Assembly: GCA_046727255.1 (NCBI GenBank)
Contig: JBKPCG010000034.1
Location: 6,465-70,464, forward strand
DNA from: Acidobacteriota bacterium
GTDB taxonomy: Bacteria > Acidobacteriota > Terriglobia > Terriglobales > Acidobacteriaceae
Length of the DNA stretch: 64,000 bases
Reading direction: 5' to 3'
Shown: in pieces, positions 21,067 to 35,412 of the stretch
Layout: every line of letters starts with the position of its first letter
Position numbering within the stretch: the first letter of the stretch is position 1
Made by a program: the position numbers and the translations under genes
Notes under the pieces: generated by a model
What the model was told of the DNA's origin: nothing
Databases searched by the model: none
The model's input: the letters and a program-made list of their open reading frames with translations, nothing else

Positions 21067-21159
21067 GCAGCGCCAGCATCCGCCAGCTGTCGCGAGGGCA
21101 TCTTGCCCTCGCGTGTGGGCGGGAAGCCCCCACGACAGCCGCCGGGATGGCAGCGCTAC
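21067..21159. repeat. REP-like three-way-junction element
   Basis: An imperfect outer stem (GCAGCGCCAGCATCCGCCAGCTGTCG / CGACAGCCGCCGGGATGGCAGCGCT) encloses two hairpins: GCGAGGGCA-tct-TGCCCTCGC (9 bp) and GTGGGCGG-gaag-CCCCCAC. It lies between the mpl 3' end and the plsC start. Confidence 0.55.
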
Positions 21160-21183
21160 TCTCGAACCGATGACGACAGTTTT

Positions 21184-22605
21184 CTATGCCCCAACCCCGA
21201 GCCTGCGCAGACGCTCTGGCAGCTTCTCATAGATGCCGCCGAATCCGCCATTGGAGAGGATGGCAACCACATCGCCCGATCGCAACTCAGGTGCGATCAC
21301 ACGGACGATGGCATCCGCGTCGGCCAGGATTCGACCACTACGACCCTGCTTTTGGATTTCTTCCACTACACGATTCAGATCAAGGCGTTCTGCTTCCGGA
21401 ATCGCTTCCGACTTGAAGACATTCGCTACGACCACTTCGTCCGCCAATGCGAGGCTTCGCCCAAGGGCCTCCTGCAGCACATTGCGCCGCATGGTATTCG
21501 AGCGCGGCTCCAGCACGGCCCACAGGCGCGCCGCTGGATATCGCGAACGCAGCGCCTGGAGCGTCTGCCCGATTGCGGTGGGATGATGCGCAAAGTCATC
21601 AATAATGGTGATTCCGTTGACATGCGCCTTGACTTCCAAGCGCCGCTTCACGCTCTGGAAAGATCGAAGAGCCTCCCCAATCACTTCTCTCGGAACTCCG
21701 TAGTCCGCGGCCAGTGCCGCCGCTGCGGTTGCGTTCCAGACGTTGTATTCACCCGCCAGTGGAAATTCGAATTCTGCCCAGCGCTTTCCTTCGCACAGCA
21801 CCGACCACGAGGTTCTTTCTGGGCCGAGTTTGAGATTCGCAATCTGCCAGGTTGCACGCCCCGTCGAACCGTAGCGTTCTACCGGACAGAGCGCCGGCTG
21901 CAAGCACCGCTCGACACTCTCCCCGGTGTCGAATGCAATGACCCGTCCGCGCCTCGGCACCAGGTTCACGAGTCGCCTGAAGGCCGTTTCCACTGCCTCC
22001 AGATCTTTGTAGATATCGGCGTGGTCGAATTCGACGGATGTGAGGATGACCGCATCAGGAAAGTAGTGCAGGAACTTTGGGCCTTTGTCGAAGAACGCCG
22101 TGTCGTATTCGTCGCCTTCGAGCAGGAAGTAGCGGCCTTCGCCGAGTCCGAAACTGCTGCCGAAGTTTTCGGCGATTCCGCCGATGAGAAACGATGGCCG
22201 CAGGCCGGCCGTTTCGAAAATCCACGCCAGCATGGATGTGGTTGTCGTCTTGCCGTGCGTGCCCGCTACCACCAGCACATCTTTCCCGACCAGAAATTCA
22301 TCGTGCAGAATCTGGGGCAGTGAGGAGAAAGGGATACGCTCGTCGAGCACATACTCCAGTTCCGCATTGCCGCGCGAGATCGCGTTTCCCACTACTACGA
22401 GATCGGGCCGCGGTTTCAAATTACCTTCAGCAAAAGGCTGCGCCAGCGGAATGCTCAGCGACTCAAGAAACGTCGACATGGGCGGATAGGCCGCAGCGTC
22501 CGAGCCGGTGACGCGAAATCCACGCTGCTTGAGCATTCCTGCCAGCGACGCCATGGCGGTGCCGCAGATTCCGATCAGGTGAACGTGTTTTGGGTTGGCG
22601 TTCAT
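21184..22605 (-). CDS. mpl: UDP-N-acetylmuramate:L-Ala-gamma-D-Glu-meso-DAP ligase (murein peptide ligase)
   Basis: HLIGICGTAMASLAGMLKQRGFRVTGSD and a Mur-ligase core (GTHGKTTTT). Confidence 0.9.
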   Translation of the reverse strand: MNANPKHVHLIGICGTAMASLAGMLKQRGFRVTGSDAAAYPPMSTFLESLSIPLAQPFAEGNLKPRPDLVVVGNAISRGNAELEYVLDERIPFSSLPQILHDEFLVGKDVLVVAGTHGKTTTTSMLAWIFETAGLRPSFLIGGIAENFGSSFGLGEGRYFLLEGDEYDTAFFDKGPKFLHYFPDAVILTSVEFDHADIYKDLEAVETAFRRLVNLVPRRGRVIAFDTGESVERCLQPALCPVERYGSTGRATWQIANLKLGPERTSWSVLCEGKRWAEFEFPLAGEYNVWNATAAAALAADYGVPREVIGEALRSFQSVKRRLEVKAHVNGITIIDDFAHHPTAIGQTLQALRSRYPAARLWAVLEPRSNTMRRNVLQEALGRSLALADEVVVANVFKSEAIPEAERLDLNRVVEEIQKQGRSGRILADADAIVRVIAPELRSGDVVAILSNGGFGGIYEKLPERLRRLGVGA

Positions 22606-22658
22606 CTTAGTAGGTAGTTATCAGCCCAGTAGTTCACCGTGACCCCGTGTCCCCGTGG

Positions 22659-23609
22659 TTAAGATTTCTCGGTTGCCGACTCCAAAATCCGGAGCTTCAC
22701 TTCGCCTTCAACATCCAACCGCGCTCGCACTCCAATCGGCAGCGTGATGTTGGCGCGTGAGACATGTCCCGACCTCAGCCCAAATGCCACTGGAATCTTC
22801 AGATTCCCGACCACACGCAGCACCACTTCTTCCAGCGTGTAGTCCTGGTCAGCGCTCTGTCGGCAGTCGAGCATTTCGCCAAAAACAATTCCGCGCACTC
22901 CGTTTAACTTCCCAGCCAGCTTCAACTGCATCAGCATGCGATCGATCTGGAAGGGCTTGGCTGCCACGTCCTCCAGAAACAAGATCGTGCCTTCGGTGCG
23001 AATCTCGTTCCGCGTTCCCAGCGATGCGACCAGGATTGACAGACACCCCCCATACAGAATGCCTTCTGCCTGTCCATGGACCATCAGACCCGCTCCGGAG
23101 CCAGCGCCGATCTCCCACTCGGCCGCGCCGCTCAACGCCGCCGCCCACGAGGCTATGTCCACGCCGTCGTCACTTGCGAAATCCTTGGTCACCATGGGCC
23201 CGTGAAACGTCACCAAGTTGACGGAGTCCGCGAAGCACGTCAGCAGACTCGTCAGGTCGCTGTAGCCGACGAAAATCTTGGGATGCGCGGCGATCTTTCT
23301 CAGGTCGAGCCTATTCAACAGATAGTTCGATCCGTAGCCGCCACGGGCGCAGATGATTGCTCGCACGTCCTGGCGCTCGAACATCTCCTCCAGTTCCCGC
23401 GACCGCCGCTCCACTAACCCCGCAAAATACAAGTCCCGTTCCATGATCGAATCGGAGTAAAGCGGCTCATATCCCATACGACAGAGCGCCGCGCTGCCTT
23501 GCTCAAGCAATTCAGGCTTGATGTTTGAGGCAGGAGCGACAATCCCAACCTTGTCTCCGGCGCGGAGCGCTGGCGGCTTGATGCGCGAAAGTCTGGGAGT
23601 GGAAACCAT
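22659..23609 (-). CDS. ldcA: LD-carboxypeptidase (peptidase S66)
   Basis: 316 aa. GDKVGIVAPAS...ARGGYGS...GYSDLTSL...FGLRSGH is the S66 pattern. It is adjacent to mpl, consistent with murein recycling. Confidence 0.88.
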   Translation of the reverse strand: MVSTPRLSRIKPPALRAGDKVGIVAPASNIKPELLEQGSAALCRMGYEPLYSDSIMERDLYFAGLVERRSRELEEMFERQDVRAIICARGGYGSNYLLNRLDLRKIAAHPKIFVGYSDLTSLLTCFADSVNLVTFHGPMVTKDFASDDGVDIASWAAALSGAAEWEIGAGSGAGLMVHGQAEGILYGGCLSILVASLGTRNEIRTEGTILFLEDVAAKPFQIDRMLMQLKLAGKLNGVRGIVFGEMLDCRQSADQDYTLEEVVLRVVGNLKIPVAFGLRSGHVSRANITLPIGVRARLDVEGEVKLRILESATEKS

Positions 23610-23620
23610 GTTGTCCGATC

Positions 23621-24418
23621 TTAAATGAAGAACTCTCCCCGGCAGATCAGCGTCGCAGGACCTTGCAAGTAAACGCGGCCTTCCCAGCGAACTGTCTGCG
23701 TTCCTCCGGGAGCAACGACCTTCACCGGAGGTGCAACCCGGCGGCTGGAAATCGCCGACACCGTCGCAGCGCAGGAACCGGTTCCCGATGACAGGGTCTC
23801 TCCTACGCCCCGCTCGAAGAGCCGGATTTCAATTTCACTCGGTCCGCGCACCACGACATATTCCACATTCGTGCCTTCGGGAAATGCCGGTTGAGTCGCG
23901 ATCAGAGCCGCCTGCCGCTGCCATCCTTCCTGAAATCCATCTACGAAAATCACAAAATGTGGATTGCCCATCGACACTTTCGTCCCGACCGCCCGGACCC
24001 ACATCGTTTCAATTGCCAGTTCCCCCGTCACCACAGGCTCGCCCATATCGGCTTCGAACTCAAACGTGGCGCCTTGTTGTCCGATGAGGCGGCAGGTTTT
24101 GGGGCCTGCACCGGTCAGAACGATTACTTCTCTCTTGTTCTCCTGCGCACCCAAATAGGCCGCTACGCAACGAGTACCATTGCCTGAGACCTCGGCCTCC
24201 GAGCCATCGGCGTTAAAGAGCTGCGCCCTTGCGTCTGCACCGGGATCCGGAAACAGCCACTCGACGCCGTCAGCGCCAATGCCGTTGTGACGATCGCATA
24301 AGCGGCGGCTGATTGCGCCCAGGTCTCCGCTTAGTGCTGCGCCTTCGATAATCAGAAAATCATTTCCGCAGGCCGAGGCTTTGGTGAAAGGAATTGACTT
24401 GCCGGAAAGCGGGTTCAT
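23621..24418 (-). CDS. dapF: Diaminopimelate epimerase
   Basis: CGNDFLII, MGNPHFV and SGTGSCA catalytic-Cys motifs. Confidence 0.93.
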   Translation of the reverse strand: MNPLSGKSIPFTKASACGNDFLIIEGAALSGDLGAISRRLCDRHNGIGADGVEWLFPDPGADARAQLFNADGSEAEVSGNGTRCVAAYLGAQENKREVIVLTGAGPKTCRLIGQQGATFEFEADMGEPVVTGELAIETMWVRAVGTKVSMGNPHFVIFVDGFQEGWQRQAALIATQPAFPEGTNVEYVVVRGPSEIEIRLFERGVGETLSSGTGSCAATVSAISSRRVAPPVKVVAPGGTQTVRWEGRVYLQGPATLICRGEFFI

Positions 24419-25152
24419 TCGTGTTCCGTGGTACCGACGGTCGCCACGCTCGCGAACACGTTCGATTCATGCAATCGGAGAGTAAGGACGTTCCGGTCTT
24501 CGGGCGCGCAATCGACGCCAAAAATCAGGCGCGACTGCCCGTCCATCGGAGCGAGATGAACGTCGTGCATGGTGAGCTTCTCGCCTTCCAGAATGCGATT
24601 CACTTCGCGCAGCATCGCTTCCACGTTGGTGCCCGTCACCTCAAACGTGGTGAGCGTGGTCTTCAACGCAAAGCGGCCTTCCAGATTCCCCAGCACGGCA
24701 AGCGCGACCAAAATCAGGACCGTCGCAAACACCGCCGTAATATACAACCCGCCGCCCACGGCCATACCCACCGACGCCACCACAAACAAGGTCGCCGCCG
24801 TGGTCAGCCCGGTCACCGACCCTCGCGAATGCAGGATCGAACCCGCGCCAATAAAACCAATCCCGGGAATAATCTGCGCCGCGATGCGTGTGCTGTCGGC
24901 GTCGGTCGCAGCCAGTTGCTTGGAAAGGACCGTGAACATCGCCGCGCCGAAACAGATAAACATATTCGTACGCAACCCGGCAGGTTTGTGGCGCAGTTGC
25001 CGCTCCAGTCCGATGATCCCGCCCAGGATGGCCGCCACCAGCAGACGATCGATCGTCGAGGAAAGCACTCGCCCCATCTCTGTGAAGAACGGATCCATCA
25101 TCGAATGGAGACTAGGCATGGTCGGAAACCGATTTTGAGCGGATTCTAACAC
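24415..25152 (-). CDS. MgtC/SapB-family membrane protein with a C-terminal ACT-like domain
   Basis: GLERQLRHKPAGLRTNMFICFGAAMF is the MgtC signature. It overlaps the dapF start by 4 nt. Confidence 0.85.
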   Translation of the reverse strand: MLESAQNRFPTMPSLHSMMDPFFTEMGRVLSSTIDRLLVAAILGGIIGLERQLRHKPAGLRTNMFICFGAAMFTVLSKQLAATDADSTRIAAQIIPGIGFIGAGSILHSRGSVTGLTTAATLFVVASVGMAVGGGLYITAVFATVLILVALAVLGNLEGRFALKTTLTTFEVTGTNVEAMLREVNRILEGEKLTMHDVHLAPMDGQSRLIFGVDCAPEDRNVLTLRLHESNVFASVATVGTTEHE

Positions 25153-25190
25153 CGCTGCCGGGTTTGCTCTGTTGACTTGCGAGGTGAAAG

Positions 25191-26912
25191 TTAACGCGAT
25201 TGATTCATGGCAGCCCGCGCCGCGTAGATTCTGGCACGCGCCTGCCCCGAAGTATGTATCTCCGTTAGCAGCCTGAGGCCCTTCTTCTCCAATCGCTGGT
25301 CGACGGCATCGCCATCATAAGCGATGACAAAGTCCACGTTTTCCACTGGGTCGACGAGCGCCTTCTCCCACAAGCCCTCCGGGTCTGCAGGCTTCTTCCA
25401 CGGCCGGTGATTCCCTTCATTGATGACTTGCCGCAGAGGCACTCCCGCCTGCTGGAATATGCCGACATGGTCGCCAACGTACATTAGGTATGTGGAATTA
25501 AGCGGCAGAGCTGAGACAGCTTTCGCCACCGACGATTCCAGCGCCAGCTTGCTCCGCGAGTTCACCCAGGCTTCAGTGAAACACAGAGGCTGCGCCTTCC
25601 AGACGAAGAAGTAGCTCAAGGCGACGAAAACCAAAACCACTACCCAAGTCCCGCGCCAAAGCAGGTTCGTATCAGGCCATCGCTTCAGCGATGGCGCAAC
25701 TTGCCTCTTTTCGATAGCCCCTTCAGGGGCTGCGATGGCAGCCACCGCCGACACAATCACTGCCGCAGACACGGCAAACAGCGGCAGCAACTGCAATCCG
25801 TAGCGCAGGTTGTACCACGTAAATGGCCACCACGCGGGCAGGAACAGCGGCACTCCGCCATACGCAATCGAAAGAGCGTAGAACACTACTGGCACCCAGA
25901 GGAGCAGAACGGCCCGCTGCGCCGGGATTTTCATCGCCAGAAAGAAACCGGCCAGCGCAATCACGATCCAGATCCTGCCCCAGTTCCCTTGCGCCATGTT
26001 CAGTTCGGCGGACTTAAGAAAGAAGCTCGCCGCCGTAACGACGTTCGCGGCTCCCGGATGCGTCGGGTATCCTGGCTGAGCCGTCCGCTGCTCAATCGCC
26101 TTCGCCGAGTACGGACCGTTCGCGAACTCCAGTGGATTTCCATAGACGGCAGCGTTGTACGCAAGCCACAACAGCGGCGCGGCCGCGATCCTTGCCAGGA
26201 ATTTCAGCGCCGCTCGCCGAAAAGTGCGGTCGCTCAATCGGCGTAAAAGCAGGAAAAACACGACCGACCCGATTACGGCGGCAAGAAACCATCCGTCGTA
26301 GCGCGTCAGTTCGGCGCCAGCGAGGCACGCGGCACATCGATAGAGCGAACGGCCTGAGGCGGAGCTGTCCATCAACTCTGGCGCGGAGTATCGCAGCGAC
26401 CGCAAAAACTCCGCAAAGTACACCACCGCCCAGATGAAAAGAGCCAGATACAGCGACTCGGTCATGGCGGTCGTCTGCAGATAAATCAGGTTTGGATTCG
26501 CCCCATAGACCAAAGCCGCCAGCCACGCGCCGGAACGCGACCACATTCGGGTCCGATCATCGTCTTCCAACAAGCTGCGTGTGAACCGGAAGATTCCAAT
26601 CACTCCCAGAACGTACGCGATCATCGATGGAATCGACCCGCCTACCCCGCTTCGCCACATCTTGTCCGAAACCAGAAATGGAATCATCAGCAGGTGCGGC
26701 AGCGGTAGCCACACTGTCCCCAACTGCAATAGGCCGGGAGTTTGGGAATCGAAGACGCGACGCGCGATATTGATGTGCGCAACGGCGTCCCCGTAGAGCA
26801 AAGTCTCTCCTCGCTGGAAATAGTAAAGAAAGGACAGCAGCGACACCGCGGAAGCGATCGTCGCGACCAGCTTGAGATCAAGGTCGAAGATGCGTTTGGT
26901 GGGAATGCTCAC
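25191..26912 (-). CDS. Large polytopic membrane protein, GT-C (ArnT/PMT-like) glycosyltransferase family; start uncertain
   Basis: More than 10 predicted TM segments. The first 19 codons of the track ORF (to 26969) are encoded by the heptad repeat, so I prefer the GTG at about 26912 (VSIPTKRIFDL...). Confidence 0.6.
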   Translation of the reverse strand: MSIPTKRIFDLDLKLVATIASAVSLLSFLYYFQRGETLLYGDAVAHINIARRVFDSQTPGLLQLGTVWLPLPHLLMIPFLVSDKMWRSGVGGSIPSMIAYVLGVIGIFRFTRSLLEDDDRTRMWSRSGAWLAALVYGANPNLIYLQTTAMTESLYLALFIWAVVYFAEFLRSLRYSAPELMDSSASGRSLYRCAACLAGAELTRYDGWFLAAVIGSVVFFLLLRRLSDRTFRRAALKFLARIAAAPLLWLAYNAAVYGNPLEFANGPYSAKAIEQRTAQPGYPTHPGAANVVTAASFFLKSAELNMAQGNWGRIWIVIALAGFFLAMKIPAQRAVLLLWVPVVFYALSIAYGGVPLFLPAWWPFTWYNLRYGLQLLPLFAVSAAVIVSAVAAIAAPEGAIEKRQVAPSLKRWPDTNLLWRGTWVVVLVFVALSYFFVWKAQPLCFTEAWVNSRSKLALESSVAKAVSALPLNSTYLMYVGDHVGIFQQAGVPLRQVINEGNHRPWKKPADPEGLWEKALVDPVENVDFVIAYDGDAVDQRLEKKGLRLLTEIHTSGQARARIYAARAAMNQSR

Positions 26913-26922
26913 GGAAGCGATT

Positions 26923-27008
26923 GTAGAAGTTAGAAGTAAGATTGCAGAAGTAAAAGCCCCGACAACCAACAGAATTTTACTTCTACAGTGGGACTTCTGA
27001 CTTCTAAC
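26923..27008. repeat. Heptad-periodic inverted repeat (YAGAAGT flavour)
   Basis: The left arm is GTAGAAGT TAGAAGT AAGATTG CAGAAGT AAAA (26923-26955). The right arm is TTTT ACTTCTA CAGTGGG ACTTCTG ACTTCTA AC (26975-27008). The right arm ends 1 nt before the pfkB-family stop codon. Confidence 0.75.
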
Positions 27009-27009
27009 T

Positions 27010-27933
27010 TTATTCGAGGTGTGTCAGTTCGCGGAAGATCTGGAAGCGCGCGTCAATCTCTTCCCGCGTCAGATTCTGGAGTCGCTCTGTGCCGAAGCGT
27101 TCCACCGCGAACGAGCCCATCACGCCCCCATAAAAGAGGGCGCGCTTGAGCACCTCGCGATTGATCTCGCCCTGCGAAGCGATGTATCCCATGAACCCGC
27201 CCGCAAATGAGTCGCCCGCACCCGTCGGATCTTTCACCTCTTCGATGGGCAGCGCGGGCGCGCGGAACGGGTGCTTGCCGATGCCAAATGCTCCTTCGCG
27301 GAAAAAGATGGTGGCTCCGTACTCACCGTGTTTGACGACGAGCGCCTGCGGCCCCATGGTCAGCACTTTCCGGGATGCACGTAGAAGATTCTTCTCGCCC
27401 GCGAGCATCTTGACCTCGGTATCGTTGATCAGGAGAACGTTAACCAACTTCAATGTCTCCGCAAGTTCTTTCGGAGTCCGCTGGATCCAGAAATTCATGG
27501 TGTCGCAGCCCGTCAGACGCACGCCGTTCATTTCCCGTCGCACGGCCGCCTGCAGCGTCGGATCTATATTGGCCAGGAAGAGAAACTGGGTATCCGCGTA
27601 CTCCTTCGGGATGCGCGGCTGAAACTTCTCGAATACGTTCAGTTCCGTGAAGTCGGTCTTGGCTTCGTTGAGGTTGTCGAGATATTGGCCGCCCCAGCGG
27701 AATGTCTTGCCCTTGGCGCGCTCGATTCCGCGCGTGTCCACGCCGTGACCCTTCAAAACGGCTTCATCCTTTGCGGCGAAGTCGTCGCCTACAACCGCGA
27801 CCACGCGCACGTCGGTGAAGTAACTTGCGGCTAACGAAAAATACGTCGCCGCCCCTCCCAGAATGTTCTCAACGCGGCCGGAGGGCGTGGCAATGTCGTC
27901 AAAGGCAACGGAACCGACTACCAGAATGCTCAT
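27010..27933 (-). CDS. PfkB-family sugar/nucleoside kinase
   Basis: 307 aa. The N-terminus is VGSVAFDDI... and the C-terminus has DPTGAGDSFAGGF (the PfkB signature). Confidence 0.85.
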   Translation of the reverse strand: MSILVVGSVAFDDIATPSGRVENILGGAATYFSLAASYFTDVRVVAVVGDDFAAKDEAVLKGHGVDTRGIERAKGKTFRWGGQYLDNLNEAKTDFTELNVFEKFQPRIPKEYADTQFLFLANIDPTLQAAVRREMNGVRLTGCDTMNFWIQRTPKELAETLKLVNVLLINDTEVKMLAGEKNLLRASRKVLTMGPQALVVKHGEYGATIFFREGAFGIGKHPFRAPALPIEEVKDPTGAGDSFAGGFMGYIASQGEINREVLKRALFYGGVMGSFAVERFGTERLQNLTREEIDARFQIFRELTHLE

Positions 27934-27946
27934 CAGTCTCCAAAGG

Positions 27947-28021
27947 GGTGGTTAGTCGATGGTCGTTAGTCGTTGGCAAACCAGAGCGAACGACTCGCGT
28001 CTGACGACCAACGACGACTAC
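27947..28021. repeat. Heptad-periodic inverted repeat (TAGTCGT flavour)
   Basis: The left arm is GGTGGT TAGTCGA TGGTCGT TAGTCGT TGG. The right arm is CGAACGACTCGCGTCTGACGACCAACGACGACTAC. The right arm contains the mtnP stop codon (CTA at 28018-28020). The pfkB-family SD (GGAGA) follows the left arm in the transcript sense. Confidence 0.7.
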
Positions 28022-28878
28022 AAATACTTTCCCACGATTAACCTCAACTTCTCTTTCGTCGCCGCCGGAATCTTGTCCCGCTCCGTCAAAATGGCGTGGG
28101 CCAGTGCTGACCCGCACTTGCAGGATCGCGCCTCTGGCATTCCGGCTACACTTGCCTTCACAACTTTGGCGGCGTTCTCCGCGTTTTTGACCAGGACCGA
28201 AATGATCTGATCCACCGTTACTGAATCGTGGTGCGGATGCCAGCAGTCGTAATCCGTCACCATGGCAACCGTCACGTAACAAATCTCCGCTTCGCGCGCC
28301 AGCTTCGCTTCCTGCAAGTTGGTCATGCCGATCACATCTGCGCCCCAACTGCGGTATACGTTCGACTCGGCCTTGGTCGAAAATTGCGGCCCTTCCATAC
28401 AGACGTAAGTTCCTCCAAGCTTGGCATTCACATCGACGCTTTTGCAGGCGCTCTCGACCACTCGCGCCATCTCGCCGCACACCGGATCGCCAAAGCCAAC
28501 GTGGGCGACGAGGCCGTTGCCGAAGAAAGTATCCACGCGGTGGCGCGTACGATCGAAGAACTGGTCGGGGATGACGAAATCGAGCGGCTTGTGCTCTTCC
28601 TTGAGCGACCCGACGGCCGAGACCGACACGATGCGCTCAACGCCCAGCTGCTTGAATCCATAAATATTGGCGCGAAAATTCAGTTCCGTCGGCAGAAGTT
28701 TGTGGCCGCGATCGTGGCGCGCCAGGAATGCCACACTGCGCCTTTCCAGTGTGCCAAGAATGTAAGCATCGGAGGGAGCACCGAAGGGAGTCTCTTGCTG
28801 GACTTCCCGCACGTCCGAAAAGCCCGGCATGCTGTACAGACCACTGCCGCCGATGATGCCGATCTCTGCCTGTGGCAA
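28018..28878 (-). CDS. mtnP: S-methyl-5'-thioadenosine phosphorylase
   Basis: IGIIGGSGLY...MEGPQFST...TNLQEAKLAREAEI is the MTAP family pattern. It has a TTG start with a GGAGAAGAAGG SD. Confidence 0.92.
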   Translation of the reverse strand: MPQAEIGIIGGSGLYSMPGFSDVREVQQETPFGAPSDAYILGTLERRSVAFLARHDRGHKLLPTELNFRANIYGFKQLGVERIVSVSAVGSLKEEHKPLDFVIPDQFFDRTRHRVDTFFGNGLVAHVGFGDPVCGEMARVVESACKSVDVNAKLGGTYVCMEGPQFSTKAESNVYRSWGADVIGMTNLQEAKLAREAEICYVTVAMVTDYDCWHPHHDSVTVDQIISVLVKNAENAAKVVKASVAGMPEARSCKCGSALAHAILTERDKIPAATKEKLRLIVGKYL

Positions 28879-28932
28879 GCCTTCTTCTCCTGATTGGTCT
28901 GGGAATGATTAAGGAACCGGTGATTATAACAA

Positions 28933-29033
28933 GGTCAGAGGTCAGAGGTTAGATTGCAGAGGTGAATGCTTATGATACGCGGCGACTTGCCGAGAGTTGG
29001 TTTTTACCTCTGAAATCTGACCTCTGCATTTCC
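28933..29033. repeat. Heptad-periodic inverted repeat (CAGAGGT flavour)
   Basis: The left arm is GGT CAGAGGT CAGAGGT TAGATTG CAGAGGT GAA (28933-28966). The right arm is TTTTT ACCTCTG AAATCTG ACCTCTG CATTTCC (29001-29033). The right arm encodes the last 8 codons and the stop of the upstream protease gene. Confidence 0.75.
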
Positions 29034-30581
29034 GTCTAATTTACGGGTCCCGCCCCAAAAATCTACCGCCGACCGTTTCGTCGTGTCTTCATCCAAACTC
29101 TCGCTGATCAAGATCGCGTCTCCGCGGACTTCAATCACCACCGGCCCCTCTTCGGTCAACCACGCATGGTACCCTCGCAGCGTCCTCCAGGAATCCACTG
29201 GCGGGGCATCGTCTGTGACTTTGCCGTCCGCGCCCAAACCTCTTGGCCGCTTGTAACGCTGTGCCAGCGACTTCGCGTACACCGCCGCGAACTCCGCCGC
29301 CTTCGCCGGACTCGACCAGCGTGACACGTACAACAATCCCAACGGCGCCGACTTATCTCCCTTCGGACGTCCCGCAAAGTAATATCCGCCGCGCCAGTGC
29401 GGGTACAACTCCCGCGCCTCGTCGCCGCCCGCGTACTGCTCCACGAGTACCGCCACATCGAACTCGCCGATCGCGCCGATATCGAACCGGTCGTAGCCCT
29501 TGAAGTCCTTGTCAAAATCGAGGAGTTTCAGCGGCGCGACCTTTTCGTGCGAAAGATAAGTCTGCGGCTCCATGATCTCTCGGGTCGTGGTCGGCGGATT
29601 CTTGAACACCTCGCCAAACGCCAGCTCTTTGCCTCCAGCATTAAGCAGCGCCGCTGTGAAGTCGATTCCGTACCGATACGGAAAAGTCAGCGTCTCTTTG
29701 AGAAAGACGGGCGCCGAGCGAAACGTGGGCGTGTCGGCGGTGCCCACTAACATGCCCTGCTTCAAAGCGTCCGCGATCTGAGGAGCATCCAGCAGCGTTT
29801 TGCCCGTGGGCGCAAGCGAATAATCGAGCAGGGTGACCATCGCCTGTCCTTCGATCACTGCCTGCCGCGCGGATTGCATTTCGTCAGTCGCGATGTCATC
29901 CGGTGAAGGATCGCGGGCGTGGTTCGACTGCTCGCCTGTCTGCATCCATTTCTCCAGGCCAAAAGACTGGTCCTGGAGCGCATGCGTCAGTTCGTGCGCC
30001 AGCACTGGACGCTGCGATTCCGCGTCCACCCAGTTCAGCAGGTTTACCGTCTTGGTCTTGGGATCGTAATATCCCGCCACTTGCTCCTTGAGGAGCGCAA
30101 CCAGAAACGTTTTCAGATCGAAATCGCGTGGCAAGAGTCCAAATTTCTTCAGCACAATTTCCGAGCGTTCCAGCCGTTGCGCGTCCTTGTCCTCTTTCAT
30201 GTTCTTCTCGATGAAGGACTGCACTTCGCTGCGCTCCACCAGCCGCCGCTTGACTTCCTCTTTGATAGGCAGCTTGGTCTCGCGGCTGGCAAACTCCAGA
30301 ATCTCGTCAACCGACTTGAAAAGCTCCTTGGCCTCCCGCGGGGAGATGATCTTTTCTGGCGTGGCCGGTGTGGCTTTTGTGGTTTGTGTGGCGCGGGCCC
30401 CCTCGCCCGCGTGGGCCGTCGACTGCTGCTGATCCTGAACCTGCAGACCGAGCTCGTCGAGGTTCTTGCCCGGAGCAGGACTGCTCTGCTGCAGAGCAGT
30501 CTGAGCCCAGACGGGTAGAGCCAGCAGCATGGCAAGCAGAACAAGTTTGCTATTGCGGATTCTCATTGTCACAGATGGCAC
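29004..30581 (-). CDS. Secreted HExxH-motif protein (putative zinc metallopeptidase)
   Basis: Signal peptide MRIRNSKLVLLAMLLALPVWAQ. It has an HELTHALQDQ motif. The family is otherwise unassigned. Confidence 0.65.
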   Translation of the reverse strand: MPSVTMRIRNSKLVLLAMLLALPVWAQTALQQSSPAPGKNLDELGLQVQDQQQSTAHAGEGARATQTTKATPATPEKIISPREAKELFKSVDEILEFASRETKLPIKEEVKRRLVERSEVQSFIEKNMKEDKDAQRLERSEIVLKKFGLLPRDFDLKTFLVALLKEQVAGYYDPKTKTVNLLNWVDAESQRPVLAHELTHALQDQSFGLEKWMQTGEQSNHARDPSPDDIATDEMQSARQAVIEGQAMVTLLDYSLAPTGKTLLDAPQIADALKQGMLVGTADTPTFRSAPVFLKETLTFPYRYGIDFTAALLNAGGKELAFGEVFKNPPTTTREIMEPQTYLSHEKVAPLKLLDFDKDFKGYDRFDIGAIGEFDVAVLVEQYAGGDEARELYPHWRGGYYFAGRPKGDKSAPLGLLYVSRWSSPAKAAEFAAVYAKSLAQRYKRPRGLGADGKVTDDAPPVDSWRTLRGYHAWLTEEGPVVIEVRGDAILISESLDEDTTKRSAVDFWGGTRKLDGNAEVRFQR

Positions 30582-30627
30582 CCTGAGCGGGATCGAAGGT
30601 GGGCTAGTGATTCTCTCCGACAGAAAT

Positions 30628-31698
30628 TTATCCGCCTGAAACGCGATTTACGACCCACTCGCCCGCCTCCCGCGTGCCCAGTGACCCACCAATGTCCGTA
30701 GTGGTCTTCTTCTCCCGTACCGCTTCAAGCACTACCGCTTCAATCTTCTCGGCCTGGGCAGTCATCCCGAGATGCGCCAACATCATGGCTGCAGTCAGAA
30801 TCGCGCCCAACGGGTTGGCAATGTCCTTCCCCACGAGGGGAGGCGCCGATCCATGCACCGGCTCGAACATCGAAGTCTTCCCCGGATGCAGGTTGCCACT
30901 CGCGGCCATGCCCAAGCCACCCTGCAGCCCTGCGGCGAGGTCGGTGATGATGTCGCCAAACATGTTGTTGGTCACGATCACATCGAACCCGCGCGGATCG
31001 CGCACCATCTGCATGCACAGCGCGTCCACGTACAGGTGCTGCTTTTCAATCTGCGGATACTCCCCGCCGACTTCCTTGAACACGCGCTGCCAGAGCCCAC
31101 CCGCATGAGTCATGGCGTTAGACTTGTCGCACAACAGCACACGACGGCGGCGCGAGCCGTCCAACTTCTTGCGAGCAGCGCAGTACTCGAACGCATAACG
31201 TATGATGCGCTCCACGCCCTTGCGAGTATTCACGTCTTCCTGAATTGCGATCTCATCGGGAGTTCCCTGCTTGAAAACTCCGCCCAGGTCACCGTACACG
31301 CCTTCGGTATTTTCGCGGATCACGACGAAATCCACGTCCTTCGGCTCGACGCCCTTGAGCGGACAAAGCAACGCATCCATCAGCCGCACTGGCCGGATGT
31401 TCGCGTACAAGTCCATCTTGAGTCTCATGCCGAGCAGGATTTCCTTGGCGTGAATGTTCGAGGGCACACGCGGATCGCCGAACGCGCCGACCAGGATTGC
31501 GTCGAAGTCGCGAGCGAGCACCGCGAATCCGTCGGGCGGCACGGTGGTCTTATCGGCGAGATAGCGGTCGGCACCCCAGTCGAAGTGGGTAAAGGCCAGG
31601 TCAGCACCTGCCGCCTCGAGCACGCGTAACGCTTGCGGGATGACTTCTTTGCCGATGCCGTCGCCGGGAATGACTGCGATTCGTCTCTTTGCGCTCAC
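30628..31698 (-). CDS. Isopropylmalate/tartrate dehydrogenase-family oxidative decarboxylase; start uncertain (track ORF extends to 31821)
   Basis: IAVIPGDGIGKEV, NMFGDIITDLAAGLQGGLGMAASGNL and HGSAP. A GTG at about 31698 gives about 356 aa, the usual size for this family. Confidence 0.85.
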   Translation of the reverse strand: MSAKRRIAVIPGDGIGKEVIPQALRVLEAAGADLAFTHFDWGADRYLADKTTVPPDGFAVLARDFDAILVGAFGDPRVPSNIHAKEILLGMRLKMDLYANIRPVRLMDALLCPLKGVEPKDVDFVVIRENTEGVYGDLGGVFKQGTPDEIAIQEDVNTRKGVERIIRYAFEYCAARKKLDGSRRRRVLLCDKSNAMTHAGGLWQRVFKEVGGEYPQIEKQHLYVDALCMQMVRDPRGFDVIVTNNMFGDIITDLAAGLQGGLGMAASGNLHPGKTSMFEPVHGSAPPLVGKDIANPLGAILTAAMMLAHLGMTAQAEKIEAVVLEAVREKKTTTDIGGSLGTREAGEWVVNRVSGG

Positions 31699-31845
31699 TC
31701 GCACGAAGATATCAGAATCCACTGGGGATACATACCGATGCGCTTCCATTTGCGGGGGAACATATGCATGCCGAATCTTTCGCAGCCGACATCCAACTGG
31801 CTCCCACTCAGCCGTCGTCATCCTCCGCTATAATCGAAGTAATAC

Positions 31846-32856
31846 GTGAAAACTGCCTTACAAGGCGATTCGACACAAGGCCAAGCGCCTGACTTCGGCG
31901 ACCTTCGCGCTGAGTTTCAAGCCCTACTCTCGGGCTCTGGCGTGTACGACCTCAGTGCGCGCGCCAAGATTGCGCTGACTGGCGGCGACCGCGTCCGCTG
32001 GTTGAACGGGATGATTTCCAACAACGTCCGCGATCTTGCGCCGCGGCACGGCGTCTACTCCTTCCTGCTCAACGCCCAGGGACGCATCCAGGGCGACTTG
32101 TATGCCTTCAACCGAGGCGAATCCGTGCTGGTTGACACCGAGCGAGCGCAACGCGACAGAGTTTGGGAGTTGTTCGATCACTACATCATTGCGGACGACG
32201 TTGAAATGGCCGATGTCAGCGACAAGATCGCTGCCTTGGGCCTGACAGGTCCCGAGTCGCACGCTGTGCTCGAGCGCGCGGGCATTCCCGTGCCGGAACT
32301 CGCCTATCTGCAGTTCGCGGATGTTCAATGGCGGCAGATAGCGGTCACCGTGCTGCGGGCGGGAGAAGAGGCCAAGGAATCGTGGCAAATCTGGATCGGC
32401 CCCGAGCACGTCAACACTCTGTGGGATACGTTGGTCAAGGCAGGGGCGAAGCCGACGGGCTCCGCGGCGCTGAATCTGTTCCGCATCGCGCGTGGAATTC
32501 CGCAGTTCGGACAGGACATCCGCGACCGTGACTTGCCGCAGGAAACTGGCCAAACGCGCGCGCTGAATTTCACGAAGGGTTGCTATCTGGGTCAGGAAAT
32601 CGTCGAACGCATTCGTTCGCGGGGCGCGGTGCATCGGCAATTCACAGCGTTCGCAGTCGAGGGTCCGCTGCCGGAACCGGGCAGCAAGATTCAAGCGGAC
32701 GGAAAAGAAGTCGGCGAAATTACCAGCAGTGCGATCTTGCCTTTGCCGAGTGGAGACTGCGCGGCTGCTCTCGGCTACTTGCGGCGTGAGGCGGCGGCGA
32801 AAGAACTGGTCGCCGGGGAAACAAAGCTGGCTCCGACTCAGACCACTATCGCTTAG
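31846..32856 (+). CDS. ygfZ: Folate-binding YgfZ / GcvT-like protein
   Basis: The KGCYLGQE signature together with an aminomethyltransferase-like fold. Confidence 0.85.
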   Translation: MKTALQGDSTQGQAPDFGDLRAEFQALLSGSGVYDLSARAKIALTGGDRVRWLNGMISNNVRDLAPRHGVYSFLLNAQGRIQGDLYAFNRGESVLVDTERAQRDRVWELFDHYIIADDVEMADVSDKIAALGLTGPESHAVLERAGIPVPELAYLQFADVQWRQIAVTVLRAGEEAKESWQIWIGPEHVNTLWDTLVKAGAKPTGSAALNLFRIARGIPQFGQDIRDRDLPQETGQTRALNFTKGCYLGQEIVERIRSRGAVHRQFTAFAVEGPLPEPGSKIQADGKEVGEITSSAILPLPSGDCAAALGYLRREAAAKELVAGETKLAPTQTTIA

Positions 32857-32899
32857 CTGGGTGCGTGATGCCGAAGAGAACGCAAGACGGAATCAACTT

Positions 32900-33466
32900 A
32901 TGGCAGAACACAAGAAAGATTCAGCAATTAAAGTCAACGACCGGCGTCTGTTTACCGCGGATGGCGACCTACGCGACAGCGTCGAGGAAAATTCCGCTGC
33001 GGCTTCCGAAACACCAACTCAGGTCGCCACGGCCAATTCGCCTGTCGCGGACGCGCCCTCGTCCGACGTGCCTCCTCCGCCGACCACCGGTGAGCAGGAG
33101 GCGCAGCATGATGCCTACAAACAATCTTCGCGCGACCTTGACGCGCGTGTCGAACTGAGCGGCCACTCTGCGAAGGAGCTCGAAGTCAGCTTCGAACGTT
33201 TTCTGGCCTCGCTTTACATGACTGCCATGATGCAACTCGGTTTGATGGTGGAACAGGGCGGCGCCCCGCATGTTGATCTGATCGGCGCTCGCCAGACGAT
33301 CGACACGCTCGGCATGCTCGGTGAAAAGACCAAAGGCAACCTCACGCCGAAAGAGCAGGCCTTCATCCAGAACGCGCTCTACGAGCTGCGGATGGCGTAT
33401 GTCGAAGTCACGAACGCTCTGGCGCATCCTCCCCAGCCCGGCCCCAGCACAGGAACCAACGGCTGA
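32900..33466 (+). CDS. DUF1844-like small acidic protein
   Basis: MAEHKKDSAIKVNDRRLF... and FLASLYMTAMMQLGL... resemble DUF1844. I picked the internal Met, because the upstream part of the track ORF overlaps ygfZ. Confidence 0.65.
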   Translation: MAEHKKDSAIKVNDRRLFTADGDLRDSVEENSAAASETPTQVATANSPVADAPSSDVPPPPTTGEQEAQHDAYKQSSRDLDARVELSGHSAKELEVSFERFLASLYMTAMMQLGLMVEQGGAPHVDLIGARQTIDTLGMLGEKTKGNLTPKEQAFIQNALYELRMAYVEVTNALAHPPQPGPSTGTNG

Positions 33467-34239
33467 TGCAGGCCACGCTGACGGTACTCGGCAGCGGCAC
33501 TTCGATGGGAGTCCCCACGATCGGCTGCGACTGTGCCGTCTGCCGCTCGTCCGATCCGCGCGACCGCCGCACCCGGCCGTCGGTAATGATCAGCTTCAAC
33601 GGGCACCACGTCCTGATTGACACTACACCCGATTTCCGCGAGCAGGCGCTGCGCGAGAAGATCACCGCGGTGGACGCCGTTCTTTACACTCATACTCACG
33701 CCGACCACATTCTTGGAATTGACGATCTGCGCCCGCTGAGCTTTGCGCACAAGCCGGGCAGATTGCCTCTGTATGCGGATCCCGCAGCAGCTGAGTTTCT
33801 GCGCAACATGTTCCGCTATATCTTCGACGCCGACTACAAATTCGGCGGTCTGCCTCAGGTGGAGCTGAAACCCATCGACGGCCCGGTTGAATTGTTCGGC
33901 GCGCGGTTTGAGCCGGTGACCGTGATCCACGGAGAGACTCCCATACTGGCCTTTCGGTTCGGATCGGCCGCCTACCTCACCGACCACAGCGACGTGCCGC
34001 CCGACTCTCTGGACCGGCTGCGGAATCTCGATATCTTGTTTCTGGATGCGCTGCGCTACAAGCCCCATCCGACGCACTCCACGGTTGAGCAGGCGTTGCG
34101 GATCGTTAACGAAGTAAAGCCTAAGCGAGCTTTCTTCACTCATATCTGTCACGACTTGTCCCATGCAGCGACCGATAGCTCGCTGCCACCTGGAGTCCGA
34201 CTGGCGTACGACGGAATGAAATTGGAGTTTGAGATCTAG
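33466..34239 (+). CDS. MBL-fold metallo-hydrolase (PhnP/GPMB-like)
   Basis: The HTHADH motif. Its start overlaps the previous stop (TGATG). Confidence 0.8.
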   Translation: MQATLTVLGSGTSMGVPTIGCDCAVCRSSDPRDRRTRPSVMISFNGHHVLIDTTPDFREQALREKITAVDAVLYTHTHADHILGIDDLRPLSFAHKPGRLPLYADPAAAEFLRNMFRYIFDADYKFGGLPQVELKPIDGPVELFGARFEPVTVIHGETPILAFRFGSAAYLTDHSDVPPDSLDRLRNLDILFLDALRYKPHPTHSTVEQALRIVNEVKPKRAFFTHICHDLSHAATDSSLPPGVRLAYDGMKLEFEI

Positions 34240-34317
34240 GAGGCTCTGAAAACTGATTCCTGGGGAGGTTGTTGACCTCGGCCGCTAAAGCCGAATCTCA
34301 AGGCAAACCGGTTATTC

Positions 34318-34335
34318 GCAGCGCTGAAGCGCTGC
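34318..34335. repeat. Short GC hairpin GCAGCGC-tgaa-GCGCTGC in the MBL-ribF gap (REP-like)
   Basis: A 7-bp perfect stem read from the sequence. A second 5-bp hairpin (TCGGC-cgctaaa-GCCGA) lies about 35 nt upstream. Confidence 0.4.
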
Positions 34336-34360
34336 CACCCAAAATCAGCTGGCACACTCG

Positions 34361-35393: not shown

Positions 35394-35412
35394 GCTGTAC
35401 AATCGCCCCCGC

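Follow-up and report, generated by a model that had tools for sequence, protein, structure and literature searches.

Seven intergenic loci of a 64-kb stretch of DNA from a soil member of the Acidobacteriota (64,000 nucleotides, hereafter the window) carry tandem arrays of 7-nt units that face a complementary array 20-110 nt away. We hold it to be slightly more probable than not that these elements form a superfamily of short palindromic repeats, dispersed through the DNA of the Terriglobales, i.e., REP/REPIN/MITE-like repeats shaped by slippage plus arm-to-arm correction. Judged from the sequences, their different flavours are dispersed repeat families and not locus-specific structures. The arms stay complementary through changes of family and flavour without strand bias, unit numbers change between near-identical strains, and orthologous gaps differ by gain, loss or replacement of elements.

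Results

Period-7 arrays with inverted partners

The first-pass annotation had reported seven heptad inverted-repeat loci in 64 kb, three of them in consecutive gaps, and all were recovered where it had placed them (E1-E7, Table 1). All lie in intergenic gaps between co-directional genes. Within the window, we count 8 period-7 arrays (at least 12/14 matches) vs. 0.15 expected from Markov shuffles; the other periods among 4-12 yield 0-5 arrays, which are coding and found at multiples of 3. Comparison material is given by the window plus 20-kb loci from relatives. In 1.61 Mb from 84 Terriglobales genomes, 72 period-7 arrays are present, 40/72 with an inverted partner, and other periods that are non-multiples of 3 show 1-12 arrays with at most 2 partners. 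A 7-nt period combined with an inverted partner is supported as a specific and recurrent architecture.

Typically, two inverted arms of 3-6 units each (occasionally up to ~16) enclose a variable loop of ~10-100 nt. The unit has in most cases the form (T)YAG+4 nt, and TCAG or TTAG occurs in 176/371 arrays vs. 9% expected, given a sample that is biased toward one family. Among the sequence families are CAGGTCT, CAGAGGT/CAGAAGT+CAGATTG, TAGTCGT, CAGTGGT and others. The window alone shows at least 4 flavours, and relatives show more than 8. The E1 centre (99 nt) hosts a nested TTTGCG-type repeat. In E7, the promoter-proximal arm comprises ~11 perfect GCAGGTC units and the other arm 4-5 degenerate ones. 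E4 is a paralogue of E2: both match unit by unit including an odd unit (TAGATTG / AAGATTG), and their AGG/AAG difference comes with matching partner arms (ACCTCTG/ACTTCTG), just as first described.

Table 1. Heptad elements E1-E7 and neighbouring promoter features (positions within the window)
Feature	Family	Position	Strand	Arms	Context
E1	CAGGTCT family	17036-17207	+	17036-17069 (5'), 17169-17207 (3')	DUF6982 gene (stop 17029-17031) to lpxD (ATG 17232)
lpxD -10 box TACAAT		17210-17215	+		directly 3' of E1 3' arm; outside the repeat
E2	AGAAGT subfamily with odd unit AGATTG	26923-27009	-	26923-26954, 26975-27007	PfkB stop 27010-27012 to TACAAT 26920-25 and GTG 26912 of the next gene
E3	TAGTCGT family	27947-28021	-		between mtnP and PfkB SD/ATG (27933)
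mtnP promoter TGTTATAAT		28921-28929	-		comes after E4
E4	AGAGGT subfamily with odd unit AGATTG	28927-29033	-	28931-28963, 29004-29026	
E5	TAGTGGT family	35295-35393	+		between ribF and MFS gene (TACAAT 35398, ATG 35413)
E6	CAGGT family	47633-47805	-		M28 peptidase stop 47813-47815 to TACTAT 47625 and GTG 47618 of terC
E7	CAGGT family	49324-49503	-	49324-49400, 49471-49503	ABC permease stop 49508-49510 to M28 peptidase ATG 49282

The labels of the genes around E2-E4 are confirmed for PfkB and PNP_UDP_1 (mtnP-like), and the product of 29004-30581, annotated as an HExxH protease, shows a HELTH motif plus a weak DUF6782 metallopeptidase match; the GT-C label for 25191-26912, on the other hand, finds no Pfam match. 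Arrays were said to start usually 0-7 nt from the upstream stop codon. This holds for E1, E2, E3, E5 and E7 (0-5 nt) but not for E6 (~12 nt) or for E4, whose arm includes the stop (29004-29006) and the ~9 codons before it that end the HExxH protein. The TAG stops of mtnP (28018-28020) and ribF (35303-35305) fall inside the first unit of E3 and E5, respectively.

A dispersed family

To sample the E2/E4 family widely, metagenome sequences were searched with the 16-mer AGATTGCAGARGTAAA. More than 120 metagenome stretches match (a lower bound), and among the 127 matches listed there are 53 complete elements with different flanks. That is, the E2/E4 arms are near-identical over 35 nt in at least 53 unrelated metagenomic contexts, with the family consensus GGTCAGAGGTTAGAGGTCAGATTGCAGAGGTAAAA-loop-TTCACCTCTGCAATCTGACCTCTAACCTCTGACC and the termini (G)AGGT...ACCT(C). 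The loop is variable, and the copies fall into AGG and AAG subfamilies, with hybrids and nested copies as well; nested or clustered copies are found in L132, L159 and L183. The respective contigs also hold extra copies and other heptamer families. In a control on viral contigs, 120 matches of the same 16-mer include 0 complete elements, i.e., they are chance matches only, and a plasmid collection shows no match. This wide sampling covers E2/E4, while the multi-context dispersal of the other flavours is seen from a handful of loci.

Copies from different contexts can share their loop (L181/L195; window E4/L199), which indicates that the element is copied as a whole. Across species, the odd unit CAGATTG keeps its position in both arms. 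Against the reading that we favour, pure slippage would tend to erase this unit.

The first-pass annotation had taken the AGG/AAG difference as evidence for covariation. Since it mainly separates two subfamilies of one dispersed repeat, this 'covariation' reduces to few events. In mixed elements, of which too few clean copies are at hand, no signal of unit-level covariation is seen, with a concordance of 8/12 at matched vs. 16/24 at unmatched positions. The case of recent, identical insertions of one palindromic MITE, which had been named as fatal to the structural interpretation, is approached by the E2/E4 family, but its copies are neither identical nor all recent.

Arm pairing and strand symmetry

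We compared RNAduplex energies of arm combinations. Arms of the same locus reach -38.8 kcal/mol vs. -18.5 kcal/mol for arms of different loci, so that the comparison on which the structural interpretation had been staked turns out in its favour. In addition, 90.4% of the arm positions are paired vs. 87.8% in shuffles (0/500). E1-E7 fold as hairpins on either strand with z-scores from -3.2 to -6.8 (E6 is the exception with -1.7). The suggested folding of both strands thus yields hairpins on each of them but no preference for the sense strand: antisense folding is equal or better in 6/7 elements and, as ssDNA, both strands fold equally. This is also reflected in the arm mismatches, which show no sense-strand G:U bias (wobble-compatible: 47 sense vs. 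56 antisense) and, in a second count, no strand asymmetry (GU 4 vs. AC 4). Selection acting on the transcript is not evident from these values.

Rfam was searched at gathering level for the window plus five loci, with no relevant match, and at E up to 5 for 26.8-29.2 kb, with only chance miRNA-like matches. There are no tRNA genes near the elements. Intrinsic terminators were considered and rejected: no T-run follows the 3' arms and a terminator scan calls none of the elements. Canonical terminator counts do not exceed those of shuffles (22 vs. 20.4; 3 vs. 5.3). Mismatch symmetry, the lack of a U-tract and the lack of an Rfam match point to a hairpin at the DNA level over a sense-RNA motif.

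Such a motif could be imagined as follows. The 5' arm would present (Y)AG every 7 nt to a ring protein of the HutP/TRAP kind, whose binding melts or prevents the hairpin and thereby decides between termination and read-through to the gene that follows; variation would be free at the 4 spacer bases, with the 3' arm co-varying. HutP recognises XAG motifs at 7-nt spacing at two sites of a terminator hairpin (PMC2425495), i.e., in the Bacillus hut terminator two blocks of NAG triplets flank the hairpin centre. In the window elements, YAG is found at 7-nt spacing in the 5' arms, CAG/TAG is at a fixed unit position in most recurrent flavours, elements begin right after stops and terminate ahead of the following promoter or SD, and in L014 it is only by G:U on the sense strand that the arms pair. 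Nevertheless, we rate this reading as unlikely. Besides the missing G:U excess, the well-folding antisense strand and the absent U-tract, divergent gaps and 5' UTRs hold elements too, and a projection of hundreds of copies per genome in multi-copy families is unlike a dedicated regulon. Furthermore, the second block is the complement of the first and not a further XAG run (except for the CAGGTCT flavour), whereas both blocks of the HutP site are NAG on the same strand. The latter is a single, RNA-read and HutP-dependent site, and HutP is not known outside Bacillus relatives, while the present elements are multi-copy, strand-symmetric and palindromic.

Orthologous gaps

The comparison of orthologous gaps that had been recommended indeed reveals variation in both presence/absence and unit number. 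E1 has an orthologue in at least 13 related genomes; in L016, L017 and L032, the lpxD gap holds a GTAG-type hairpin instead of an E1-type element. Orthologues of E2 are found in L005, L014 and L052, while its gap is empty in L008 and the genes overlap in L009. For E3, we observe orthologues in L008, L014 and L079 as well as flavour variants in L052 and L022. E4 is present in the window lineage only, i.e., the gap is without it in L005, L008 and L009.

Flavour switches that affect both arms at orthologous gaps are seen in L008 (CAGGTC to CAGCTC), L052 and L022 (TCGT to TCGC or GCGAG) and L091, and one-arm intermediates (hybrids) in L018 and L005. The claim that pairing is conserved while sequence is not is therefore borne out by the both-arm switches but not within a flavour, where sequence conservation is strong. 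Several elements occupy the same orthologous gap across species with LpxD 75-87% identical, their centre being partly conserved. Much of their evolution is therefore local to the gap, a point against the reading that we favour, and such long retention could reflect a host function.

Unit numbers were compared among strains that we reached via the neighbouring ABC gene. The perfect arm of E7 has ~5, 7, 10 or 15 units among 99.8%-identical strains, and its one-arm expansion (5 to 16 units) is unpaired. E6 is identical in strain L093, and E2-E6 are of constant length among the strains in which E7 varies. Given the one-arm hybrids (L018, L005) and the unpaired E7 expansions, slippage drives much of the pattern.

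Could slippage explain everything? In that case, the elements would be local by-products without mobility: slippage expands a unit near a stop codon, a snap-back template switch makes an inverted copy of the array, and repeated template switching keeps the arms alike, such that elements are neutral filler in dispensable spacer. The polymorphic unit number among near-identical strains, the E7 arm expanded beyond its partner, the one-arm flavour takeover in L018, the strand-symmetric mismatches and the retention of locus-specific flavours over speciation all agree with this, as does the statement, quoted in PMC4679880, that in many prokaryotes no class of long SSR is commoner than the heptanucleotide repeats. 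It leaves unexplained, however, why at least 53 unrelated contexts hold arms that are near-identical over 35 nt and in which regular and odd units follow each other in the same order, why loops are common to different contexts, and why, in the window lineage alone, an E2-type copy appears in a new gap at a distance of 2 kb. As far as sequence comparison can tell, the dispersed E2/E4 family argues strongly against a local by-product as the sole mechanism, and we see only a slim chance for it.

The varying copy number of the perfect E7 array among strains would also suit contingency (phase-variation) loci, in which changes of the unit number tune the expression of neighbouring genes. Here, the arrays are outside of both the -10/-35 spacer and coding frames, E2-E6 have constant length between the same strains, and the neighbours are housekeeping genes (lpxD, ribF, mtnP), which renders this option extremely improbable.

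Position relative to genes and promoters

Flanking genes are arranged in tandem in 19, convergently in 10 and divergently in 5 cases. Among 74 element ends, 38 face the 3' end of a gene, and 17/38 of these are located at -3 to +5 nt of the stop. At the other side, the -10 box begins 0-8 nt after the 3' arm in E1, E2, E4, E5 and E6, so that the arm covers the -35/UP region.

This arrangement, together with strand symmetry, would be expected if the elements were arrays of dsDNA sites bound by a nucleoid protein or global regulator, which inverted arrays recruit on both sides of a spacer near promoters. A precedent with the same NNNCTGA core exists in Geobacter metallireducens, for whose paired heptanucleotide sites binding of IHF/HU was proposed (PMC2700814). 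We deem this idea highly unlikely: with many different flavours side by side in a genome, no single sequence-specific protein can recognise all elements, the position of the -35-like hexamer is unconserved across orthologues of the lpxD gap, the promoter is fully conserved in relatives without the element, and many copies reside in convergent gaps without a promoter. Arms acting as -35 elements were discarded, since only E1 reaches a 9/12 promoter match and the -35 position is not conserved in orthologues. TACAAT is not part of the repeat but a box of the downstream gene, and its conservation does not depend on the element: the lpxD TACAAT is conserved in nearly all 80 relatives whether the element is present or absent.

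Transposases and target sites

RAYT-like Y1 transposase genes are present in relatives, detected by motif search (L018, L024, L031) and homology (P0176, P0212). All five Y1_Tnp genes, sampled from one RAYT clade, are flanked by a different palindrome (GGGTGGCCCG.CC...GCGAAGG.CGGGG) and by no heptamer arrays, and a link between RAYT and the elements was rejected on this basis for the clade sampled. The 37 parsed copies show no target-site duplication, and no target consensus or motif was seen among parsed copies. Within 2.5 Mb of loci, no arm pair encloses a transposase-sized segment as a parent IS would; pairs of arms at distances of 0.3-4 kb seem to be fortuitous or to belong to neighbouring copies.

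Relation to known systems

REP/REPIN/BIME sequences share many properties with the window elements: both are short extragenic hairpins with complementary arms, of high density and mostly downstream of genes, that form inverted doublets or clusters, vary in presence among relatives and lack target-site duplications. As for REPs, copies are dispersed (at least 53 in distinct contexts; seven per 64 kb), and in relatives the same gaps are found to hold GTAG-type REP-like hairpins. In contrast, a REP is a palindrome of 20-40 nt while we observe tandem 7-nt arrays 20-110 nt long, and the REP tag GTAG/CGTC is not a constant feature; GTAG is found at some loci for the sole reason that the stop codon TAG adjoins the element. 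Furthermore, the cognate RAYT of REP/REPIN is flanked by the same repeats, which is not the case for the five RAYT-like genes sampled from relatives.

Bacterial MITEs (Correia/NEMIS, ERIC, Nezha, Chunjie) are intergenic multi-copy sequences of ~70-190 bp with terminal inverted repeats, which often abut or overlap gene ends and supply stop codons. Terminal inverted repeats, small size (50-500 bp) and multiple copies are thus MITE-like in our elements. Un-MITE-like are the missing target-site duplication, the failure to find a parent IS with the same ends in 2.5 Mb of loci, the highly variable loop, and inverted repeats that are internally periodic and expand or contract. Integron attC sites were dismissed, as the flanking genes are syntenic housekeeping genes and there is no GTTRRRY core.

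Direct heptanucleotide repeats are reportedly known as STRR from cyanobacteria, said to go back to Mazel et al. in 1990. The TAACTGA repeats of Beggiatoaceae/cyanobacteria are almost always direct, on one strand and upstream of start codons, with only one inverted case among 170 sets (PMC4679880). They resemble the window elements in being tandem 7-nt units, intergenic, abundant, of variable copy number and with CTGA/TCAG in the unit (TAACTGA reads TCAGTTA on the opposite strand). Both TAACTGA and STRR repeats, however, are built from one unit sequence only and lack a partner arm.

The first-pass annotation knew of no described class with this architecture, but precedents exist. Xanthomonas genomes hold 70-75 pairs of GGGAATC heptamer arrays, the type being conserved between species and the length variable (Rehm et al. 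2015, PMC4692102), and Geobacter metallireducens has 8 pairs of class-3 'global regulator sites' (ATTCTGA/CTCCTGA, 70-115 nt apart; Aklujkar et al. 2009, PMC2700814). In all three systems, tandem 7-nt units are placed convergently on opposite strands, tens of nt apart, in intergenic regions; if the type is defined by at least 2 units per array and a distance of at most ~150 nt, the window elements belong to it. The Geobacter core NNNCTGA is the same as in ACTTCTG-A of the window elements, and the AGAAGT flavour fits the consensus MTYCTGA. On the other hand, Xanthomonas and Geobacter use essentially one unit sequence each (GGGAATC; MTYCTGA) compared to at least 8-10 flavours with matched arms here. 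The Xanthomonas arrays were studied as G-quadruplex formers, while the present units cannot form G4. Dispersal as hairpin elements that have defined termini is reported in neither paper, nor are co-evolving arms or an odd unit retained in both arms.

Discussion

For the dispersed palindromic repeats that we favour, copies would be made by a mechanism acting on a folded single-stranded DNA hairpin, and pairing would therefore outweigh sequence across families. After insertion, replication slippage may alter the unit number and homogenise units within an arm, and intra-hairpin template switching and/or selection for foldability would return the other arm to register. It is documented that template switching can make the arms of inverted repeats alike and that hairpins arise and persist through it (PMC8604942; preprint 10.1101/2021.04.15.439925). 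Elements would accumulate where a few bases are free after a stop codon, ahead of the following promoter or gene end. Their hairpin would therefore form the 3' end of the transcript from the upstream gene, and an effect as terminator, insulator or RNA stabiliser would be plausible by analogy to REPs.

More speculative, and unlikely in our view, is that the (T)YAG+N4 heptad is a recognition code and no accident of slippage, i.e., that a putative protein reads AG/CT every 7 nt on the folded or single-stranded arm, and that the same system underlies the CTGA-core heptanucleotide repeats of Geobacter, Beggiatoaceae and cyanobacteria. The reader could be a structure-guided nuclease or transposase of ssDNA hairpins or a HutP/TRAP-like ring on RNA. 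If true, the arrays would be the footprint of a widespread and undescribed nucleic-acid-protein system whose specificity stems from register and pairing and not from sequence. Any dedicated enzyme or binding protein, should it exist, would represent a new kind of structure- and register-guided recognition.

Heptanucleotide repeats are the most frequent long simple repeats of many bacteria, and the Terriglobales are a favourable case for studying their origin and role, given many coexisting flavours, orthologous series of one- and two-arm switches, copy-number variation between strains and a dispersed family with sharp ends. Three mimics of RNA covariation, namely copying, slippage and arm-to-arm correction, are separable here. 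Caution is needed as apparent compensatory changes in intergenic hairpins can stem from repeat-family structure and template switching instead of RNA selection. For the annotation of genomes and MAGs of acidobacteria, the elements account for many "extra" C-terminal residues, odd stops and intergenic regions of variable length.

Heptad Inverted Repeats in the Window and Across Terriglobales

Using Tandem Repeats Finder and an inverted-repeat finder, we recovered all seven heptad inverted repeats that the first-pass annotation had placed at 17037, 26923, 27947, 28933, 35298, 47633, and 49324 (E1 to E7), and its unit sequences agree with a direct reading of the window. Each element consists of tandem 7-nt arrays with a complementary inverted partner array, i.e., two arms and a loop, and co-directional genes flank all seven. 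At a threshold of at least 12 of 14 matches, the window holds 8 period-7 arrays versus 0.15 in Markov shuffles; arrays of other periods are rare or represent coding repeats at multiples of three.

We also scanned four syntenic relatives together with lpxD-centred loci from 80 species-level genomes (1.61 Mb, 84 genomes). Here, 40 of the 72 period-7 arrays show an inverted partner at most 300 nt away. Periods 4, 5, 8, 10, 11, and 13 yield 1-12 arrays with at most 2 inverted partners, and periods 6, 9, and 12 (coding repeats) about 51 arrays with 1-5 partners. Since other periods give so few partners, the combination of heptad and inverted partner is a specific feature of the lineage. The gaps that hold heptad hairpins in the sampled genomes can be tandem, convergent, or divergent, and one further site is a probable 5' UTR. 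In another clade (L059, also L048 and L062; L numbers denote loci of related genomes, strains, or metagenome contigs), they bracket a DUF6982 gene: the 5' hairpin, in what is probably the 5' UTR of the gene, stops 9 nt ahead of the ATG, and the 3' hairpin occupies the convergent gap past the stop codon and has the opposite polarity, the C-rich arm coming first.

Coordinates of elements and associated features (window unless a locus is named)
Feature	Locus	Position	Remark
E1	window	17036-17207 (+)	lpxD gap
E1 loop	window	17075-17125	extent of the TTTGCG-type repeat in the element centre
TACAAT in E1 centre	window	17143-17148 (+)	sense
E2	window	26923-27009 (-)	PfkB-downstream gap
E3	window	27947-28021 (-)	mtnP-PfkB gap
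E4	window	28927-29033 (-)	HExxH-mtnP gap
E4 coding arm	window	29004-29033	
E5	window	35295-35393 (+)	
E6	window	47633-47805 (-)	
TACAAT in E6 centre	window	47718-47723 (+)	antisense to flanking genes
E7	window	49324-49503 (-)	
-10-like box	window	26912-26925	start codon 26912
-10-like box	window	31829-31848	
-10-like box	window	35398-35415	start codon 35413
-10-like box	window	47616-47630	start codon 47618
Acido-Lenti-1 motif	window	14590-14635 (+)	
Non-heptad inverted repeat	window	54622-54715	gene ends 54616 and 54719
DUF6982 5' hairpin	L059	7726-7797	
DUF6982 3' hairpin	L059	8301-8345	
lpxD-upstream arms	L014	~9880-9975	
15-16-nt tandem unit	L008	8975-9035	mtnP 5' UTR
GTAG-tagged hairpin	L005	8998-9040	
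Y1_Tnp gene	L018	2620-3156	single-copy
Y1_Tnp gene	L024	~15270-15811	single-copy
Y1_Tnp gene	L031	~16306-16842	single-copy
Y1_Tnp gene	L219/L228	1201-1740	single-copy

Dispersed Multi-Copy Families

A metagenome scan with the signature AGATTGCAGARGTAAA of the E2/E4 family (CAGAGGT/CAGAAGT units plus the odd unit CAGATTG) matched at least 120 stretches. Among the 127 matches listed, 53 represent complete elements, and their flanks differ entirely. As a control, the signature 16-mer was matched 120 times in viral contigs without a single complete element, which validates the complete-element criterion. The 37 cleanly parsed copies have common termini, (G)AGGT...ACCT(C), and a common unit order, A A B A - loop - A' B' A' A', and no target-site duplication was found around them. 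Their loops (7-75 nt) mostly differ, and some are common to copies in different contexts. AGG and AAG versions form two subfamilies; hybrids between them are few, and some copies are nested or clustered. The CAGGT flavour also looks like a family, because E1, E6, and E7 have common outer (between AAAG and CAGG) and inner (CAGGAAAACC) boundaries. Further flavours on the same metagenome contigs are CAGGTGT, CAGTGGT, CAGTTGC, CAGTTCT, TAGTCGT, and CAGCTGT. The proposal that pairing and period are conserved while sequence is not is partly supported: it applies across families, but each family is itself sequence-conserved and multi-copy.

The E1 loop holds a TTTGCG-type repeat (CTTTGCGTCCTTTGCG...GCGGTTAAAGG) whose motif forms an inverted-repeat element of its own upstream of lpxD in L059, L081, and L087; hairpin loops seem to serve as insertion sites.

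Y1 transposases of the RAYT-like kind (REP-associated tyrosine transposases) are frequent in the lineage, and we considered them as mobilisers of the heptad elements. No link was found for the five genes examined: each is single-copy and has a different palindrome on its flanks, i.e., the TIR GGGTGGCCCG(T/G)CC(T)ATCGCG...GCGAAGG(G/C)CGGGG. In this, the genes agree with the acidobacterial 'TIRYT' group, described as single-copy and palindrome-flanked (Di Nocera et al. 2013, PMC3733652).

Arm Pairing, Slippage, and Strand Symmetry

Folding both strands predicts a long hairpin on either strand for each of the seven elements, with z-scores of -4.1 to -6.8 for RNA (exception E6, -1.7) and -3.2 to -4.7 for ssDNA. 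Arms are more complementary within a locus (-38.8 kcal/mol) than between loci (-18.5 kcal/mol). Arms taken from other species at the same orthologous gap reach -35.6 kcal/mol, and permuting arms within gaps gives p-values of 0.04-0.06 in three series. Within the E2/E4 family, 90.4% of arm positions are paired versus 87.8% in shuffles. AGG/CCT does covary with AAG/CTT as reported (inner unit: 20 GC, 17 AU, 4 GU, 4 AC), but this reflects subfamily structure, i.e., few events that were then copied. A SNP in strain L001 (29013 A>C) re-establishes pairing to the odd unit.

Among strains that are 99.8% identical elsewhere, the perfect E7 arm comprises about 5, 7, 10, or 15 units, and E6, located 1.7 kb away, is unchanged. 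The partner arm of E7 has far fewer units, and pairing therefore cannot drive the expansion. Slippage acts in place and contributes to the pattern. Template switching between inverted-repeat arms is documented as a route to arm homogenisation and compensatory-looking changes (PMC8604942; 10.1101/2021.04.15.439925).

With regard to the level of the constraint, 47 arm mismatches are G:U-compatible on the transcribed strand versus 56 on the opposite strand, beside 119 transversions. The antisense strand folds equally well or better in 6/7 window elements, no U-tract is present at the elements, and an Rfam search of them gave no matches. The constraint is therefore strand-symmetric. A DNA hairpin, cruciform, or copying intermediate fits this better than a sense-RNA motif. 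With regard to the suggested selection on a hairpin or cruciform structure, the signal is DNA-level, and slippage contributes to it. A host effect may still act at the RNA level, since the hairpin sits exactly at the position of a 3' UTR structure.

Canonical terminator motifs do not exceed the shuffle level anywhere in the region scanned (hairpin plus U-tract: 22 vs 20.4 shuffled in 16500-36000; 3 vs 5.3 in 46000-51000), and canonical intrinsic terminators may be of little importance in the source organism. A different inverted repeat at 54622-54715 (33-nt arms, 88% complementary, CAATTTACCGCGGAGGACGCAGAGATCGCGGAG), which is not heptad-periodic, fills a convergent gap, possibly as a bidirectional terminator or as a separate repeat family. 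The window also contains an Acido-Lenti-1 sRNA motif (RF01687; 50.7 bits vs gathering score 37) directly upstream of the minus-strand gene 14650-16248. Homologues of the PfkB protein encoded in the window carry Terriglobales names.

Turnover in Orthologous Gaps

In a clade comprising at least 14 genomes, the lpxD gap carries an E1-type element, always followed by the conserved lpxD promoter (G/T)TACAAT, which is equally conserved in many relatives without element. The unit is CAGGTCT/AGACCTG apart from three exceptions: in L008 both arms switched (CAGCTC/GAGCTG), in L018 CAGCTCT is confined to the 5' arm, and in L014 the adjacent arms TGTTGGC x4 / GCTGACA x4 pair on the sense strand solely via two G:U in each unit, the single case that looks RNA-specific. 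In L016, L017, and L032, a GTAG-type REP-like hairpin replaces the heptad element.

For the mtnP-PfkB gap, the TAGTCGT unit occurs in the window, L008, L014, and L079, with variants in L052 (TAGTCGC/GCGACTA) and L022 (TAGCGAG/CTCGCTA) and unrelated hairpins in L005 and L009. In the PfkB-downstream gap, the window, L014, and L052 share the AGAAGT type, whose two arms each contain the odd unit AGATTG; L005 combines an AGAGG 5' arm with a mixed 3' arm, L008 has no element, and the genes overlap in L009. Among the relatives compared, the HExxH-mtnP element is restricted to the window lineage. These comparisons thus reveal gain, loss, replacement, and remodelling of elements. The postulated two-arm switches do occur, alongside one-arm intermediates.

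GTAG-tagged REP-like hairpins (GTAGGGACAGCCGCC..GGCTGTCC; GTAGCGCCGCC..GGCGGC..CGCTAC) also lie upstream of lpxD in L062, L064, and L071 and are found in L005; the gaps in question carry heptad elements in sister genomes. In L008, the mtnP 5' UTR includes a 15-16-nt unit (AGTAACGTTCGGCCC) that is repeated four times in tandem; the corresponding place in the window has no copy.

Gene Context

Array starts had usually been located 0-7 nt from the stop codon. This holds for five elements (0-5 nt), while E6 starts at about 12 nt and the E4 arm includes the stop itself: it encodes the C-terminal ~9 residues (NAEVRFQR) of the HExxH/DUF6782-like protein, whose C-terminal tail is different in each of the four relatives compared. 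In the E2/E4 family, 38/74 element ends face a gene 3' end, with the stop codon -3 to +5 nt from the element end in 17 of these 38; gaps are tandem (19), convergent (10), or divergent (5). Relatives without elements have the next promoter just 13-40 nt past the stop codon, such that the limited room predicts tight spacing, and targeting need not be assumed.

TACAAT/TATAAT boxes beside the 3' arms are -10 boxes of the downstream genes, and 5 of the 8 TACAAT occurrences in the window lie in or adjoin elements. The -10-like boxes (TACAAT, TACTAT, TATAAT) are placed 6-11 nt ahead of start codons (6-9 nt for those at 26912, 35413, and 47618), with no Shine-Dalgarno sequence, an arrangement which suggests that many mRNAs of the organism are leaderless. 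Additional TACAAT boxes inside the E1 and E6 centres could be internal or antisense promoters.

Relation to Known Repeats

Our literature search found no description of such elements in Acidobacteria. Xanthomonas genomes are reported to contain paired convergent heptamer arrays, 70-75 pairs of GGGAATC in each, of a type kept between species (PMC4692102). Geobacter metallireducens has eight class-3 heptamer pairs (units ATTCTGA/CTCCTGA), guessed to be IHF/HU sites (PMC2700814), and their consensus MTYCTGA equals the ACTTCTG-A flavour of the acidobacterial elements. The TAACTGA direct repeat of Beggiatoaceae and cyanobacteria has the CTGA core in common with them (PMC4679880). HutP recognises XAG every 7 nt (PMC2425495), a spacing that the acidobacterial heptads resemble. 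The element type adds a new variant, one with many flavours, to the small palindromic or paired-heptamer repeats already known.
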